The notes below the pieces were generated by a model, which worked only from the letters and a program-made list of their open reading frames with translations, did not search any database and was not told the origin of the DNA. Source: Candidatus Hodarchaeota archaeon (GTDB lineage Archaea > Asgardarchaeota > Heimdallarchaeia > Hodarchaeales > Hodarchaeaceae). From it: DNA of 61,316 bases. The DNA is taken from contig JAEOTQ010000030.1 in the NCBI GenBank assembly GCA_016839785.1, positions 1 to 61,316 on the forward strand, read 5' to 3'. Shown here in pieces: positions 54,752 to 61,077 of the stretch (position 1 is the stretch's first letter; each line of letters starts with the position of its first letter). The translations under genes were made by a program, and so were the position numbers.

Positions 54752-55294
54752 CTAGGATGGAAGAAACTTCTTCCCACAATGGGTACAGAAGATACTTCCT
54801 TTCTCTAACTGATTTCCACAAGATGAGCATTGCGTTCCGCTTTTTAGACCAGAAACTCTCTTTTTATTTACTTCCTTAGTAACATCTTCGGGAGGATAAT
54901 ATCTTTCCTTGACTTTACCTATTGGTCTTTCTTCAATTAACGTACTCATAGTTCCAGCAATCAGAAAAAATCCATAAGCAATCACAATAATGTATCCAAA
55001 CGATAAAACAGGCCAAAAAATTCCAATTAAAACAGTAAAAGCCCCAATACCACCAATTAGTGTTATAACTGCCTCTTTCTGAGATTTACTCAGAGTAAGT
55101 CGACCAGGTTCACTCGATGTTTCGACAAATAAACCATTAAGGACCCCAGCTACTAGAAAGAAAGGGAAAGCTATCACAATAGACAATCCAAAATCTATAT
55201 GCCCAGAAAAAATCGATAATAATATAGGAACAACTCCAATTCCACCTATAAATGTGGTAAGAGCATCTTTGTAATTCTTCTTCAATCTTGACAC
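54752..55294 (-). CDS. Membrane protein (internally duplicated 2-TM module) with C-terminal zinc ribbon
   Basis: TFIGGIGVVPILLSIF... is duplicated as TLIGGIGAFTVLIGIF... The C-terminus reads CSSCGNQLEKGSIFCTHCG. Confidence 0.65.
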   Translation of the reverse strand: MSRLKKNYKDALTTFIGGIGVVPILLSIFSGHIDFGLSIVIAFPFFLVAGVLNGLFVETSSEPGRLTLSKSQKEAVITLIGGIGAFTVLIGIFWPVLSFGYIIVIAYGFFLIAGTMSTLIEERPIGKVKERYYPPEDVTKEVNKKRVSGLKSGTQCSSCGNQLEKGSIFCTHCGKKFLPS

Positions 55295-55434: not shown

Positions 55435-56091
55435 CTACTCTGGTTTTTTCTCTTTTATCTTCGTTTGTGGAGTTTTAGTTTTGATTATAGTTGGGGGAAT
55501 TGATTTTGATTGCTTTGGTAATTTTTTAATATTAGATTTGGGTGGGGTCTTGTTAGTAATGGTTTTTTTAGGAATTGTTTTTGATGTGAGTGTAATTGGA
55601 GTTGAACTCGATTTCCTCTTTGGACTTTTATCTTGAATGGCTTGTGGTGGTTTTGCGTTAATTATTCGATCTGGCTTCTTTTTCGATATACCTCTTCTTG
55701 TTGGAGGCGTACTTTTCCGATCTTCTACCTCAGGTAATCGTCTTGGAATTTTTCGATTTACTGGATCCTTTTTACGCTGTGATTTAGGTAAACTTCCTTT
55801 GGTGGATGGAATTGTTGATTTTTTCTTATTCTTGGACTGAGTTACAGGAGGAAGATAGTTTTTATTGGTTTTTTGTTCTTCTTCCCTCTTTTTTATTCCA
55901 TGATTGGTAGGATAAGTAACGGATTCTTTTTTTAAGATGAATTTTTCAATATTTCGTGAGGGAGGTAGTTTAAATTGCTTTTCCGAGTCATCAGGAGTTT
56001 TCCCTGTGATGGAGGGAATTATTTTTTGTGCTGGAATCTTCTCCCTAATGGTGTCCTTCGGTTTTTTTGATCGAATGTTTAATCGAACCAC
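55435..56091 (-). CDS. Lys/Pro/Thr/Ser-rich, strongly basic low-complexity protein
   Basis: 218 aa dominated by K, P, T and S (for example KKKPDRIINAKPPQAIQDKSPKRKSS). No hydrophobic core is evident. Confidence 0.55.
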   Translation of the reverse strand: MVRLNIRSKKPKDTIREKIPAQKIIPSITGKTPDDSEKQFKLPPSRNIEKFILKKESVTYPTNHGIKKREEEQKTNKNYLPPVTQSKNKKKSTIPSTKGSLPKSQRKKDPVNRKIPRRLPEVEDRKSTPPTRRGISKKKPDRIINAKPPQAIQDKSPKRKSSSTPITLTSKTIPKKTITNKTPPKSNIKKLPKQSKSIPPTIIKTKTPQTKIKEKKPE

Positions 56092-56184: not shown

Positions 56185-56769
56185 TTATTTTCCCAGAATA
56201 AATCCAATTCCAGAGAATATAAAGAATAGTCCATATAATATTCCAAGGAGATCAGATGCAAATGCTCCAGCAATTAGGAAGAGGAGACCAAAGATAAAAA
56301 AAGTAAATATTGCAGTCCATTCGGCAGAAGGCCCCCTCTCAGACTGTGATGTAATCCGAATGAACTGATAGCGAGTGAAACTTCGGATTAACAAAGCTGA
56401 TGAAACTACTAGATAAGGAAATGCGAGAAGTGAGGGTACTGTAATATATAGGTCAAGAAATTCATTTGCAGGTAACACATTCACCTCGAAAGCTAATAAT
56501 ACCTCTTCAAATATAGGGAAAAGAGGACTAACAACAATAATTATCAGTGGAATAATATTTGCAAGAGATAAGAAGTAAATTTCGTTTAAAGTGGCGTGGT
56601 GATCGACGTAGTAAAAGATCCTTAGGAAGTACAATATAGTAATCGCGGTATAAATAGATAAGAAAAGAATATTTAAGGCTAAAGCGTCTTCATTCTGAAT
56701 AAAAAAGAAAATAGTAGCTGATACGCCAATAAGCATAATAAACCAAGCGATGGAATGTCGTATAGCCAT
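56185..56769 (-). CDS. Polytopic membrane protein, last gene of the ubiquitin-like operon
   Basis: 194 aa with about 6 TM helices. Its start lies 18 nt after the RING-gene stop. Confidence 0.6.
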   Translation of the reverse strand: MAIRHSIAWFIMLIGVSATIFFFIQNEDALALNILFLSIYTAITILYFLRIFYYVDHHATLNEIYFLSLANIIPLIIIVVSPLFPIFEEVLLAFEVNVLPANEFLDLYITVPSLLAFPYLVVSSALLIRSFTRYQFIRITSQSERGPSAEWTAIFTFFIFGLLFLIAGAFASDLLGILYGLFFIFSGIGFILGK

Positions 56770-56787: not shown

Positions 56788-57900
56788 TTAATTTTTGTAT
56801 TTCTTTTGGAACATTTGTATAATTTTCTGATAACTAGGACCTGATATGCGAATCATCTTGACATTGTTCACGGGTTTATTACAACGACTACAAATATTGG
56901 CTACTTGAAGCCACTTTTGAAATTCATTCGCATGACTAGGATGTTTGCAATGAGGACAAATTACTACTTGTTTGTCTGATTCTGTAGGAAATTCATAGCA
57001 GTAAATACACCGAAAATCATCTTTAGAAATGTTCTGGCCTGCTGGGGTCAAGCTGGCTATGAGAGCAGGTGTTAATTTCCTTTTAGTTCTCCTGGGCATT
57101 TGTATGGGAGGAGATACTTGAACCGTTGATCTTTGGGGAGTCCTCCTCGCACTAATTTGATCCCTGGTAACACGTGTTGGCTGGGAAATTGTACTACTAT
57201 TTGCCCTGGAAGCTTGTGAAGGGCTTATCCGAGTCCTACGACGTTGAACTCCTCTTATGGAAGGTCTAGAGCTACGTCTAAAAGGAATAATCATAAATTT
57301 CATCATATAATTCTGAATGAATGTCAAAATGGTAAATAACAAGAAAAATAAGGATGAAAGTTCTATTGTTCTTTGATCAAACCAGAAAATAGTCAAAATT
57401 ACTAGAAAACCAGTATTAAATACAATTAATGATTCAGAAGGGAAGCGACGTCGAAATATAAAGATATTCGGATAGCTTCCAGAATAATATCTCCTAACTA
57501 GGATCCCAAGAATAATGAAGAAGGGTAAACATATAATTAGACTAAATAAGTTGAGATACAGATAAAATGAATCTAGCTGTATTAATTCCAAACTGAGATC
57601 TAATTCAAGAAACATAGTCTGTATAACATTCTGCGAGTCACCTAAAGTAGCAGTAAATGCCAATAGACTCCCCCCAAGTGCAATCAATGAGGGAATGGTA
57701 ATAAAAATAGCTGAAGCTAGTGGTGCATTATATGAACGATAATAACGCCATTCATCTATTAGCTTGATAAGTAAGACACTTACGATAGTAAGATAAATGA
57801 GTGTTAACGAGGCGGTACTCTGCGGGTTTACGATTTGGCTTAAAAAAGCAAAGACCAATCCAGTGATAAAGACAGAGATATAGACATTTCTTCCGACCAA
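56788..57900 (-). CDS. Polytopic membrane protein with C-terminal RING-H2-like zinc finger (E3-like)
   Basis: It has about 7 TM helices and a basic linker. The finger reads CIYCYEFPTESDKQVVICPHCKHPSHANEFQKWLQVANICSRC (C-x2-C-x13-C-x-H-x2-H-x2-H-x13-C-x2-C). Confidence 0.75.
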   Translation of the reverse strand: MVGRNVYISVFITGLVFAFLSQIVNPQSTASLTLIYLTIVSVLLIKLIDEWRYYRSYNAPLASAIFITIPSLIALGGSLLAFTATLGDSQNVIQTMFLELDLSLELIQLDSFYLYLNLFSLIICLPFFIILGILVRRYYSGSYPNIFIFRRRFPSESLIVFNTGFLVILTIFWFDQRTIELSSLFFLLFTILTFIQNYMMKFMIIPFRRSSRPSIRGVQRRRTRISPSQASRANSSTISQPTRVTRDQISARRTPQRSTVQVSPPIQMPRRTKRKLTPALIASLTPAGQNISKDDFRCIYCYEFPTESDKQVVICPHCKHPSHANEFQKWLQVANICSRCNKPVNNVKMIRISGPSYQKIIQMFQKKYKN

Positions 57901-57923: not shown

Positions 57924-58736
57924 TCAATCATAATCATATTCTAAGAACATCGTTTTTCCTTCTGCTAAGGGCAGAAGTGTACTGATTAATTCTGGAAGAC
58001 TTTCTAAAGGACAGTTTAAAACTTCATAACGGGGTTCTTCCCATTTCTTCAAATCTTTTTTCAACCTGAAGATTTTAAAACCATAGTATCTTCGGGATAT
58101 TTTAGTTGGATCAATGACCAGTGCTATTGGTGCTGATAGTTGAGAACCTTTAGTGCCAAGTCGTTGATACCGAACTTGCGTTTTATAATCAGTTTTACTC
58201 ATGAATGCTCCATAAGAAGGATGCGAATGATACCATCCAAGTATCATTTCTTTTTTCTTTCTACTCTCGTTATAAACTCGTACCATGCTTTGAGGATCCT
58301 CAATTTGGGCGTTGACATTTGTCCCATGCCCAACTGGGAATGCATCTGTAATAACTAGACATGCAAGTGGTGTGTCTTTATTTTCAATATGACCAGTTAA
58401 GAGGCCTATGACTTCAACCCACTCTGACTTGGAAATGGTAGAGTTTGCATATTTTAATGCATGAAGACTTAGTCTGATATAGGCTTTTAACTGCAGTTTT
58501 ACTCTTAATGGATCAATTTCAGGATCCAAATCATCTAAGTCTTCTATTTCCTCTTTTCTTTTTGAAATTCCTTTTTTTAAGGTGAGAGTCTCTTCTGTAT
58601 GAGGTTCCTCTTCAGCTTCAGACGGCGTCGGAAATTTCAATGTAAGAGTTGAATTTTCGGGATTATAATTCATAGCTGTATCCCTTAGAAGAAGTTCGAA
58701 TAAATTTCGTGATTGCGAATCCTTTTTCTCTGGCAT
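57924..58736 (-). CDS. JAB1/MPN/Mov34 (JAMM) metalloprotease, Rpn11/CSN5-like
   Basis: An upstream Glu (WVEVIGLLTGH) is present. The JAMM motif HSHPSYGAFMSKTD (HxHx7Sx2D) is intact. Confidence 0.9.
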   Translation of the reverse strand: MPEKKDSQSRNLFELLLRDTAMNYNPENSTLTLKFPTPSEAEEEPHTEETLTLKKGISKRKEEIEDLDDLDPEIDPLRVKLQLKAYIRLSLHALKYANSTISKSEWVEVIGLLTGHIENKDTPLACLVITDAFPVGHGTNVNAQIEDPQSMVRVYNESRKKKEMILGWYHSHPSYGAFMSKTDYKTQVRYQRLGTKGSQLSAPIALVIDPTKISRRYYGFKIFRLKKDLKKWEEPRYEVLNCPLESLPELISTLLPLAEGKTMFLEYDYD

Positions 58737-58781: not shown

Positions 58782-59309
58782 TTACCACTTCTTTTTTGCA
58801 TATTTTTTCGTAATTTTTCGAGCCTTTTCTTTGAATTTACTCTTATCTTTCAAATATTCCATTGCTGCTTTTTTATTAAATACATCATGAGGGTTAGTAT
58901 AAGCCTCATCGATGTTAAACATCGCTAAAATCGAGTAAACTACCGTTGTAATATTCTTTGAAGGAGACCACCCTTGTGGTTTTCCTACTAAGTCGGGGTC
59001 GACAAGTCCAAGACAAATATTCCGTTTTCCCAAATATTCATCTGGCTTTGGCCAAAAGTTTGGGTGCCAAATAGGTGTATGCAATCGAACAAAAGGAGGA
59101 GAGTAAGGATAGTTTGGACCAAACTTGATCTCAAGCATAAATTTTCCCTCTTGATATGGGGTGCCTTTTGGACCTTCAAGAAGCACAGCTAAGTGTTCTA
59201 CGCTTTTTTTCTCTCCAGGGAAAGCTTTCAGCTGTTTAATTGTTTTCTGCTTATATAAAGTTTTTAATTGATTATAATCTTCTGCAATACGTTTAATGCG
59301 AATTGACAT
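58782..59309 (-). CDS. E2 ubiquitin-conjugating enzyme (UBC fold)
   Basis: It has the HPN triad (TPIWHPNFW) and a catalytic Cys context (RNICLGLV). 175 aa. Confidence 0.85.
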   Translation of the reverse strand: MSIRIKRIAEDYNQLKTLYKQKTIKQLKAFPGEKKSVEHLAVLLEGPKGTPYQEGKFMLEIKFGPNYPYSPPFVRLHTPIWHPNFWPKPDEYLGKRNICLGLVDPDLVGKPQGWSPSKNITTVVYSILAMFNIDEAYTNPHDVFNKKAAMEYLKDKSKFKEKARKITKKYAKKKW

Positions 59310-59315
59310 GATAAA

Positions 59316-60554
59316 TTAACCTTCCAGTTTTAATGTAAGATATATTTGGGATCCATCGTCAAAACCTGTCACAAGAACTGTCTCACAATCCTTTATTCCA
59401 GCTTCAGAAATAGTCTGGTCCAAAAATATTTCTCCAAGTTCCGAAGAATCTATTCTAAAGATCATAGGTGGAAATTCAGTATCTATTGGATATTTTTTAT
59501 CTTGAGAAAATCTTTCTATTAATTGTGACAAACGAAATTTTCGTTTTACTTTAATACGAAATAATGGAGTTCTATCTTTTCCACACATCTCGCATTTAGG
59601 ATTTCGAGGCTTCTCTATTTCATAGAATTTTCCAGTTAATCCATTATAAATCAGATAATTTAATTGAATATTTCCTAATCTATTTTTATGCATGGGAGTA
59701 TGGAGATGATGTAATATCTTGACGGCTTCTTGTGATTGTAGGGAGGCCATCACACAGTTAATCGTTATAACCGTGGGTTCGTGATTATCAATTATCTGTA
59801 TAACTTGATTAACAGAAAACGATTTTTCTTGTGGGAAGTGTTCCTTCAGAAGTTTATTTGCGTAAGAGACTACATCCTGAACTTCATTCGAATGTAATAT
59901 GTTCGCTGGTCTTCCATGTTTTTGCTCGAAGCGTAGTTGTCCTTTTAAAATGCAATGAGCCGGTCTACGAGGTTTACCAACTAGTGTACAGGCACCAAGT
60001 TGATCTTGTGCGCGTTCGGTTAATGGATCACATTCCAAGCATGCATTAGTGAATGGAGAAACTACGTATGCATGTCCGTTGTAAACTGCAGTCCCTGCAT
60101 CTATAAGAAATTTTTTGTTATGTACTGCTCGTCTATTTAACTCTGATCTAGCTTCGATAGAATCCAAGCCAGCGATATACATATCTACATCGTTGTAAAT
60201 CCGAGGGGGGACATCTTGTAATGGGCAATCAAAGGCATCAATTCTAATAAACGGGTTCATTTCCCTTAATTTTTTTGCCGCAATTTTCGCTTTGGAAGCC
60301 CCTTCGGGAGCCCCGATAAACAATATTTGGCGATTTAAATTAGAATATTCAATCGTATCAAGATCCACAAGTATTAGATGCCCAACTCCGACCATAGCTA
60401 GGTTTTTGGCAATTTCAACACCTAGACCTCCGATACCTGCAATGAGGACAGAGCTCTGTTTCAATATTTCCTGATTCCATCCAGGAAGTCGAAATTGACG
60501 ATCAAAACGCCTTTTTTCTTCCTTTGTAAGCGTTTTACTTGTGAAATTTGTCAT
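59316..60554 (-). CDS. E1-like activating enzyme (ThiF/MoeB/UBA fold) with C-terminal beta-grasp (UFD-like) extension
   Basis: It carries GIGGLGVEIAKNLAMVGVGHLILVDLDTIEYSNLNRQ. CxxC pairs CLEC and CEMC are present. An SD-like GAGGAG lies upstream. Confidence 0.9.
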   Translation of the reverse strand: MTNFTSKTLTKEEKRRFDRQFRLPGWNQEILKQSSVLIAGIGGLGVEIAKNLAMVGVGHLILVDLDTIEYSNLNRQILFIGAPEGASKAKIAAKKLREMNPFIRIDAFDCPLQDVPPRIYNDVDMYIAGLDSIEARSELNRRAVHNKKFLIDAGTAVYNGHAYVVSPFTNACLECDPLTERAQDQLGACTLVGKPRRPAHCILKGQLRFEQKHGRPANILHSNEVQDVVSYANKLLKEHFPQEKSFSVNQVIQIIDNHEPTVITINCVMASLQSQEAVKILHHLHTPMHKNRLGNIQLNYLIYNGLTGKFYEIEKPRNPKCEMCGKDRTPLFRIKVKRKFRLSQLIERFSQDKKYPIDTEFPPMIFRIDSSELGEIFLDQTISEAGIKDCETVLVTGFDDGSQIYLTLKLEG

Positions 60555-60579: not shown

Positions 60580-61077
60580 TTACCCTGCAGTACTCACCGG
60601 AATGATAAGAACTTCTAGTCCGTCTTCGAGATCATAGTTTGATAATACATCATCCGAGTCCAACGTTCGTCCACTAATCGAAAGGTGAAAATCCTGCGGA
60701 TCCAATGCAAAGATTTCCCCAATTGTTTGTGCTAATTCCCGAACAGACATCTCAGGATCAACCGTTAGTTTTTCTTGTTTTTCGCCAGGACCAATTGTTG
60801 AGCGGAAAAACAAAGTTAGTCGTTCTCCACTTGGTACCTTGGAACGTGGAACTTTAGATTGTATTGATGGATCATCCTGTTCCTCCTCCCCTTCTTCTTC
60901 AAATTCAATAAACTCTTCATTTTCCGACATAATTACATCTTCCCTAGTATTCTCTGCAATAAATACTGGAGAAAATTCATCCTTCGATAAGAAAGGTGTT
61001 CCAGTTTTTAAAACATGTAAAGAGAATACAATCAGTTTCATAGTAATCAATCCATAAATATCTATCTGAATTTTCAA
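60580..61077 (-). CDS. Ubiquitin-like beta-grasp protein with acidic N-terminal extension, ending ...IIPVSTAG-stop
   Basis: The C-terminal ~80 aa read RLTLFFRS...LTVDPEMSVRELAQTIGEIFALDPQDFHLSISGRTLDSDDVLSNYDLEDGLEVLIIPVSTAG. The real start may be the ATG at 60930 (MSENEEF...). Confidence 0.75.
   Translation of the reverse strand: MKIQIDIYGLITMKLIVFSLHVLKTGTPFLSKDEFSPVFIAENTREDVIMSENEEFIEFEEEGEEEQDDPSIQSKVPRSKVPSGERLTLFFRSTIGPGEKQEKLTVDPEMSVRELAQTIGEIFALDPQDFHLSISGRTLDSDDVLSNYDLEDGLEVLIIPVSTAG

Follow-up and report, generated by a model that had tools for sequence, protein, structure and literature searches.

Does the ubiquitin-like conjugation operon of an Asgard archaeon encode an E3 ligase that is itself embedded in the membrane? 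The question is raised by contig JAEOTQ010000030.1 of a Candidatus Hodarchaeota archaeon (assembly GCA_016839785.1), which we analysed over its whole stretch of 61,316 nucleotides (the window). Here one protein, TM-RING, combines a RING-type finger with a polytopic membrane domain, and its gene lies within an operon that also encodes a ubiquitin-like protein (Ubl), an E1, an E2 and a JAMM metalloprotease. A preliminary description of the DNA had pointed to this combination, and the parts that it placed in one open reading frame (ORF), namely a polytopic N-terminus, a linker rich in Arg, Ser, Thr and Pro, and a C-terminal finger, are all borne out by the ORF and its sequence. The gene is real and strongly conserved, more so than chance would allow, and sequence comparison together with structure models indicates that TM-RING is probably a membrane-anchored RING-type E3 serving the operon's own Ubl-E1-E2 cascade. 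Its novelty would lie in being archaeal, in being polytopic, and in carrying Glu at metal position 6.

The RING-type finger

The finger reads C298-I-Y-C301, 13 residues, C315-P-H317-C318-K-H320-P-S-H323, 13 residues, C337-S-R-C340, exactly as the preliminary description had spelled it. That spelling implied the ligand set of a RING-H2 finger, and this was not borne out when conservation was read from an alignment of 29 sequences and a second one of 17 sequences spanning several Asgard families. In both, seven residues occur at position 317 (H, R, Y, N, K, S, L) and four at position 320 (H, Y, R, F), while C298, C301, C315, C318, P321, H323, E326, W330, C337, R339, C340 and Y357 are invariant throughout the phylum. 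A canonical RING-H2 (C3H2C3) arrangement through H317 and H320 was ruled out, given that both are variable while C315, C318 and E326 are invariant; the middle ligands that are conserved are C315, C318, H323 and E326. With C315 invariant and H320 variable, the two metal sites are probably C298/C301/H323/E326 and C315/C318/C337/C340, and the family motif is therefore C-x2-C-x(13-16)-C-x2-C-x4-H-x2-E-x10-C-x2-C, a C4-H-E-C2 ligand set. The eight invariant positions match the general RING ligand spacing, C-x2-C-x(9-39)-C-x(1-3)-H/C-x(2-5)-C/H-x2-C-x(4-48)-C-x2-C, with Glu as the sixth. Among 67 cluster representatives, Glu occupies metal position 6 in 66 and the Trp is present in every one. The E2-contact positions are kept phylum-wide: residue 299 is always hydrophobic (I, M or L), and W330 does not vary.

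A profile of the finger, compared with the sequences of the Protein Data Bank (PDB), matched RNF24 best (E = 2.1e-5), followed by RNF4 (1.2e-4) and then by ARK2C/RNF165, EL5, Arkadia and RNF38, and it touched the RINGs of synoviolin and AMFR weakly (E = 0.63 and 0.81); the full-length profile likewise found RNF24 (8.8e-4). In the alignment to human RNF24 (RING-H2; PDB 2ep4), the best finger sequence match among solved structures, C318 corresponds to C3, H323 to H5, E326 to C6, W330 to the RING-H2 tryptophan, C337 to C7 and C340 to C8. The two are collinear over C1, C2, the C-K-H segment, H5, the Trp, C7 and C8, and they differ in that RNF24 has Cys at position 6 and a C3-x-H4 spacing; the likeness covers only some 50 residues.

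The finger alone was modelled by AlphaFold2 at a predicted local distance difference test score (pLDDT) of 88.6, and for this model as for that of the full protein the top 50 Foldseek matches in the PDB were all RING or U-box domains of E3 enzymes, at probabilities of about 1.0, E-values of 1e-3 to 4e-2 and TM-scores of 0.5-0.7. They include TRIM-type 3lrq, Rad18, RING1B/BMI1, CHIP, E4B, RNF4, RNF8 and TRAF6, and VIA-align gave Z-scores of 8.6 to 3lrq and 7.7 to RING1B. The preliminary description had named a treble clef of a non-RING kind as an outcome that would speak against an E3; the finger instead models as the cross-brace fold of RINGs and U-boxes. Behind it lies a C-terminal helix in which G354 and Y357 are conserved, Y357 invariantly across the phylum. 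Flanking helices are also present in the RINGs and U-boxes that match the fold best, and many dimeric RINGs and U-boxes likewise have a helix after the finger.

Membrane domain, tether and topology

Kyte-Doolittle hydropathy gave six hydrophobic segments in the membrane domain, and AlphaFold2, run on the 29 homologues, gave six helices (residues 2-24, 30-57, 65-80, 118-139, 156-176 and 181-208) with pLDDT mostly between 80 and 95 (range 75-95). Of the earlier account of a polytopic region with about seven transmembrane (TM) helices, the polytopic character stands and the count does not. The higher number probably came from segment 85-112, which contains five acidic residues and is modelled as a beta-hairpin, not as a helix. 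The domain is collinear throughout the phylum, F66 and P70 being its only invariant residues and P126 nearly so, and its best-conserved parts are two cytoplasmic loops, E-E-W-R-Y-Y-R-S-Y-N-A-P after TM2 and R-R-Y-Y-S-G-R-Y-P-x-I-F-I-F-R-K-R after TM4.

The orientation was read from the distribution of Lys and Arg in the same 29 homologues. These residues number 8.7 on average (minimum 7) in the N-terminus and loops 2-3 and 4-5 together, against 1.3 (maximum 3) in loops 1-2, 3-4 and 5-6; the inside count exceeds the outside count in all 29 proteins, and about 18 further basic residues lie in the linker after TM6. By the positive-inside rule both termini, and hence the finger, are therefore predicted to be cytoplasmic, as the preliminary description had supposed, and an extracellular finger, which it had regarded as counter-evidence, is not what the rule predicts.

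Between membrane domain and finger the pLDDT falls below 50 (residues 208-273), and the linker is predicted to be disordered. Its roughly 80 residues comprise 17 Arg, 13 Ser, 9 Pro and 9 Thr with only 2 Lys, an excess of Arg over Lys that is improbable (binomial p = 2e-5) against the R/(K+R) ratio of 0.42 in the long ORFs of the window; the imbalance recurs in all 29 homologues, with 1-7 Lys as against 10-27 Arg. A tether so poor in lysine would limit self-modification by the ligase attached to it; alternatively, it may be a basic, lipid-facing segment or merely one of low complexity.

Distribution, gene order and known relatives

A search of 5.8 billion proteins returned 61 full-length homologues of 337-433 residues, none of them named and all in Asgard bins labelled Heimdall-, Hod-, Prometh-, Thor-, Hermod- or Odinarchaeota. 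Their aligned N-terminus, MVxRNVY, agrees with the TTG start of the TM-RING ORF, and a GAGGT box lies 12 nucleotides upstream of that codon. When 1.84 billion representatives were searched with a profile of the membrane domain, only 96 clusters emerged, nearly all of the same architecture: of the 69 clusters of at least 320 residues, 67 carry the finger motif and the other two look truncated or frameshifted. Among 400 Asgard species genomes the membrane domain occurs in 186, usually as a single copy, across 13 families, including 115 of the 135 genomes of the largest family and 19 of the 21 of the window's genus; it was absent from the other Asgard families sampled. In one genome of that genus (G059:C1:54928-56025) the homologue matches in two pieces, over profile positions 2-188 and 250-380, and may be disrupted or misassembled. 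No Pfam model matches the membrane domain in the window protein or its homologues, and as sole query in the ESM Atlas it gave no usable match. With the whole protein as query the ESM Atlas returned only its own Asgard cluster, at a score of 0.93, and, as no more than a lead, two bacterial clusters from Chloroflexota at 0.79, in which 13-24% of the members have Prok-RING_1.

The operon runs on the minus strand in the order Ubl-E1-E2-JAMM-TM-RING-194-residue membrane protein, with TM-RING as its fifth gene. Intergenic gaps are 6-45 nucleotides, those on either side of TM-RING being 23 (from the JAMM gene) and 18 (to the next gene). The JAMM gene adjoins the TM-RING gene in all 46 loci inspected. 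In the window's class the order E2-JAMM-TM-RING is invariant (30 of 30 loci), and 16 loci from other families keep Ubl-E1-E2-JAMM-TM-RING without the extra membrane gene; the Ubl gene upstream of E1 is also kept in distant loci. Overall, the order with E1, E2 and JAMM is preserved across at least 10 Asgard families.

The gene that follows TM-RING does encode another polytopic membrane protein, as had been described, and in the window's class it stands directly after TM-RING wherever the locus extends far enough. An alignment of 17 sequences of this 194-residue protein shares two motifs with the membrane domain of the ligase: Y-Y-x-x-H-K-A-T-F-N-E-I-x-F ... P corresponds to Y-Y-R-S-Y-N-A-P-x-A-S-A-I-F ... 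P, and L-L-x-R-S-F-x-R-Y-x-F-I-R to L-I-R-R-Y-Y-S-G-R-Y-P-x-I-F. When the two alignments were compared by hhalign, they matched over 118 collinear columns with a probability of 64% and an E-value of 6.5e-5. On these sequence grounds the protein is a probable RING-less paralogue of the TM domain of the ligase, and such a paralogy would suggest a possible two-subunit membrane complex.

Whether the RING partners of other archaeal ubiquitin operons are soluble or membrane-bound had been put forward as a question for a survey, and both forms proved to exist in Asgard archaea. In families that lack the membrane domain, four of five searched genomes have a RING match within 1.2 kb of a more distant E2 gene. 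The three such proteins that we read have 86-108 residues and no hydrophobic segment (maximal 19-residue hydropathy below 0.9), and their motif C-P-x-C-x-x-P-A-H-x-x-H places His at position 6. The Asgard operon RINGs are therefore of two kinds, one soluble and like the small RING finger protein (srfp) of Caldiarchaeum, the other membrane-fused with Glu at position 6. In two of the three loci an ORF of 77-83 residues lies between the soluble RING and the E2 and could encode a modifier.

The nearest characterised relative is the srfp E3 of Candidatus Caldiarchaeum subterraneum, which belongs to a Ub/E1/E2 operon and is catalytically required in vitro (PMC5654768). Its I30 and W58, the equivalents of I299 and W330, are needed for activity, and it has an extra Cys, called C3B, with C3/H4 out of register (PMC5654768). 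Like srfp, TM-RING is a RING-type protein in an operon with Ubl, E1 and E2, and has an extra Cys pair at C3/C4 as well as hydrophobic and Trp residues at the E2-contact positions; srfp and the soluble Asgard RINGs also share its signature C-x2-C ... C-P-x-C-x-x-P-(A/S)-H ... W ... C-x2-C. Proteins of the srfp type are small and soluble, with some 90-110 residues, whereas TM-RING adds a six-helix membrane domain of 208 residues and an 80-residue tether, and position 6 is His in the soluble Asgard RINGs read but Glu in the membrane family. A second comparison is offered by a Helarchaeial RING E3 that acts with Asgard E1 and E2 in vitro (bioRxiv 10.1101/2023.07.25.550441); that protein is soluble when purified, has an N-terminal substrate-binding loop and comes from an ESCRT/UEV-Vps23 gene cluster, whereas TM-RING is an integral membrane protein from a stand-alone Ubl-E1-E2-JAMM operon.

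Kinship with the eukaryotic membrane ligases Hrd1 or MARCH, to whose style TM-RING had been likened, was not found; what TM-RING shares with Hrd1, gp78 or MARCH is confined to architecture and presumed location. MARCH enzymes are also small membrane-embedded RING ligases, and in both families the ligand series opens with four Cys and then one His. In MARCH, however, the RING-CH finger (C4HC3) comes first, N-terminal to the TM helices; its spacing is C3-x-C4 and its position 6 is Cys. The order in TM-RING is the opposite, with the finger C-terminal; no match to the Pfam RINGv model was obtained at E-values up to 1 among the 29 members. The case of Hrd1 is taken up below.

The E3 reading and its rivals

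If TM-RING is the membrane-anchored E3 that we think probable, the finger would dock the charged E2 through I299 and W330 and promote direct transfer of Ubl to lysines, and the invariant R339, or K342, may serve as the linchpin. The ligase would act on proteins that lie in the membrane or close to it. The membrane domain would supply location and perhaps substrate choice, a role that the RING-less paralogue next door may share in the window's class, and the JAMM protease of the operon would process or remove the modifier. In the E2 alignment H82-P83-N84, the catalytic C99, P68 (loop 4) and W114 (W114-S-P on loop 7) are invariant.

The preliminary description had suggested that the RING be modelled with the operon's E2, and a model of the E2, the finger and two zinc ions gave an ipSAE of 0.37 (runs of 0.37, 0.25 and 0.40), compared with 0.00 for the best control. 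Contact agreement between runs was at least 97%, and the pLDDT of the partner at least 82. The mark used for docking is reached by 58 of 80 solved complexes and by 2 of 110 mismatched pairs, and at values of 0.60 or less it is passed by 7 of the 80 solved complexes and by both of those mismatched pairs. The model thus lends weak support to a contact between finger and E2. As a minor point, RING and E2 are a textbook pair, so the pass may reflect likeness to, or memory of, solved complexes.

Several observations count against TM-RING as an active E3 of this operon, the weakness of the docking model among them. Zinc at site 1 is a prediction, ligand position 6 being Glu. The Pro that usually follows C7 is Ser in this clade, and the 17-sequence alignment has no conserved basic residue directly after C340, the usual site of the linchpin. 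None of the 29 members reaches the gathering score of any Pfam RING model: the window protein scores 13.1 bits with zf-RING_16 (cut-off 27.4) and 11.8 with zf-RING_2 (cut-off 27.3), and the best E-value among the members is 0.0057. On the side of the E2, the residue that matches the loop-4 aromatic differs among families. Finally, the genome contains two further RING proteins above the zf-RING_2 cut-off (C3:6887-7018 and C198:51313-51447, in open frames of 189 and 969 residues) and four weaker RING matches, and other E2-like genes on contigs C114 and C116; the RING of the operon is therefore not the sole candidate E3, and another could serve the same E2.

Some of these points suit a different role, in which TM-RING is a non-catalytic membrane receptor or scaffold whose finger binds E2, Ubl or JAMM without activating transfer, or is itself the main substrate. 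The Glu at a metal position, the missing basic residue after the last Cys, the sub-threshold Pfam scores and the weak docking are all in keeping with such a protein, and the conserved cytoplasmic juxtamembrane loops could be its docking sites. Against this, I299, W330 and the RING fold, which are what an active RING needs, are strictly kept, and in Caldiarchaeum catalysis in vitro requires the homologous small RING (PMC5654768). As for TM-RING being the substrate, a lysine-poor tether fits an enzyme that spares itself better. We regard this alternative, in either form, as unlikely.

A lower probability still attaches to a zinc finger that has nothing to do with ubiquitin transfer, one that binds, for example, nucleic acid or lipid by means of the Arg-rich linker and a zinc-ribbon-like fold, its place in the operon being incidental. 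The linker is indeed strongly basic, and individual members of the family weakly match the Pfam models of zinc ribbons and of the IFT121 zinc finger. But the gene keeps its order with E1, E2 and JAMM in at least 10 Asgard families, all of the top structure matches are RING or U-box domains of E3s, and the sequence profile finds RING-H2 ligases first; we consider this explanation quite improbable.

There remains the possibility that TM-RING is a true homologue or forerunner of Hrd1, the ligase of endoplasmic-reticulum-associated degradation, with the membrane domain and the RING-less paralogue forming a retrotranslocation channel like that of Hrd1 and Der1. TM-RING resembles Hrd1/synoviolin and gp78/AMFR in having a polytopic N-terminal membrane domain followed by a cytosolic RING and in a presumed ubiquitylation at the membrane, a paralogous partner is encoded next door, and the best structure match of the membrane domain is 9uav_B, a chain of the human HRD1 complex (Z = 8.0, root-mean-square deviation 3.8 Å over 115 residues). 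That Z-score, however, falls where VIA expects noise between bundles of helices and is equalled by unrelated soluble bundles, and the match was therefore not counted as evidence. Hrd1 kinship is highly improbable, given that TM1-4 pair with the last HRD1 helices and so differ in register relative to the RING, that the six-helix domain has no Pfam match or other detectable homology and its profile reaches one small family only, that F66, P70 and P126 make up no conserved polar intramembrane network, that the long tether and the C4-H-E-C2 ligands (as against C3H2C3) set TM-RING apart, and that most families with the ligase lack the paralogue.

Neighbouring genes and wider meaning

The coordinates of the operon, of the parts of TM-RING and of the features mentioned here are collected in Table 1. 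The ubiquitin-like gene heads the operon, and its true start probably lies downstream of the TTG that was listed. Residues of about 332-391 of the E1 weakly match Rad60-SLD/ubiquitin-like models (E = 0.075), which fits the C-terminal UBL domain described for archaeal E1-like enzymes. Metatranscriptome contigs from two libraries, at least 99% identical, span parts of the Ubl, E1 and E2 genes; none from these libraries, which may hold DNA too, lies on the TM-RING gene, a result that is uninformative on that gene either way.

Table 1. Positions of the features discussed (window coordinates, except for the soluble RINGs, which are given by locus)
Feature	Position	Strand	Description and basis
TM-RING gene	56788..57900	-	370 aa; TTG start; stop codon 56788-56790; ORF list and sequence
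Membrane domain	57277..57900	-	residues 1-208; six TM helices, predicted N-in/C-in; hydropathy, AlphaFold2, Lys+Arg counts
TM1	57829-57885	-	approximate
TM2	57757-57813	-	approximate
TM3	57649-57717	-	approximate
TM4	57496-57564	-	approximate
TM5	57376-57432	-	approximate
TM6	57286-57357	-	approximate
Tether	57046..57276	-	residues 209-285; predicted disordered, Arg/Ser/Thr/Pro-rich, lysine-poor; pLDDT, composition
RING-type finger core	56881..57009	-	residues 298-340; alignments, HMM alignment to RNF24, fold matches
C-terminal helix	56794..56841	-	residues 354-369; AlphaFold2, 354-369 (full model) and 70-85 (finger-only model)
Ubiquitin-like gene	60580..61077	-	operon head; Pfam ubiquitin 1.9e-4, residues 100-156
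E1 gene	59316..60554	-	ThiF family; Pfam ThiF 2.8e-50
E2 gene	58782..59309	-	UQ_con; Pfam UQ_con 5.5e-27; HPN motif, C99
JAMM/MPN metalloprotease gene	57924..58736	-	directly upstream of TM-RING; Pfam JAB 6.8e-16
Polytopic membrane protein gene	56185..56769	-	194 aa; downstream of TM-RING; probable RING-less paralogue of its TM domain
Lys/Pro-rich ORF	55435-56091	-	218 aa
Zinc-ribbon membrane protein ORF	54752-55294	-	180 aa
Soluble RING, locus L050	1546-1803	-	beside shorter E2; family without membrane RING
Soluble RING, locus L051	1345-1668	+	beside shorter E2; family without membrane RING
Soluble RING, locus L052	1474-1731	-	beside shorter E2; family without membrane RING

Two further ORFs lie close by. 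The first, 93 nucleotides past the operon, encodes a Lys/Pro-rich, low-complexity protein that recurs at the same position in most loci of the genus at 29-53% identity (tblastn), its richness in Lys contrasting with the Lys-poor tether of TM-RING. The second encodes hydrophobic segments and a C-terminal zinc ribbon (Pfam Zn_ribbon_3, 1.3e-7), and would be a second membrane protein with a cytoplasmic zinc finger close to the operon. Elsewhere in the genome, whose assembly is 84.5% complete, an EAP30 (Vps22/36-like) gene (2.3e-22) precedes two Snf7/ESCRT-III genes (5.5e-16 and 1.5e-10) in a cluster on another contig (C137:2351-4481); with this ESCRT-II/ESCRT-III cluster, the genome has candidate readers of a ubiquitin mark at the membrane. 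The Pfam UEV model had no match in this genome, nor in the controls, and is thus uninformative.

That ubiquitylation or extraction of membrane proteins may predate eukaryotes, as the preliminary description proposed, is a thought prompted by the location of TM-RING, and by its location alone. A broader proposal would be that an integral-membrane E3 closes the canonical stand-alone ubiquitin operon in much of the Asgard archaea, and that in the Heimdall-group class this enzyme is paired with a RING-less paralogue as a two-subunit ligase, which would tag membrane proteins either for sorting by ESCRT or for extraction and degradation by the proteasome; such a ligase, with a Glu-containing RING variant not described before, would be a functional precursor, in prokaryotes, of the quality control of membrane proteins in eukaryotes. 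Taken in its entirety we hold this proposal to be doubtful. Our literature search found no published description of a membrane-embedded RING, or of its membrane domain, in Asgard ubiquitin operons, which does not prove that none exists.

To our knowledge, small soluble RING proteins are the only ones with which archaeal ubiquitin cascades have been reconstituted. If our reading of TM-RING is true, the likely ligase of a eukaryote-like cascade sits in the cell membrane of a Heimdall-group Asgard archaeon, with implications for how ubiquitin-dependent ESCRT sorting and the quality control of membrane proteins arose. A separate, structural question, that of how far the metal sites of a RING can vary, is posed by the Glu that stands invariant among the zinc ligands. 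The operon, with a single Ubl, E1, E2, JAMM protease and membrane E3, would offer a compact system in which these matters can be tested.

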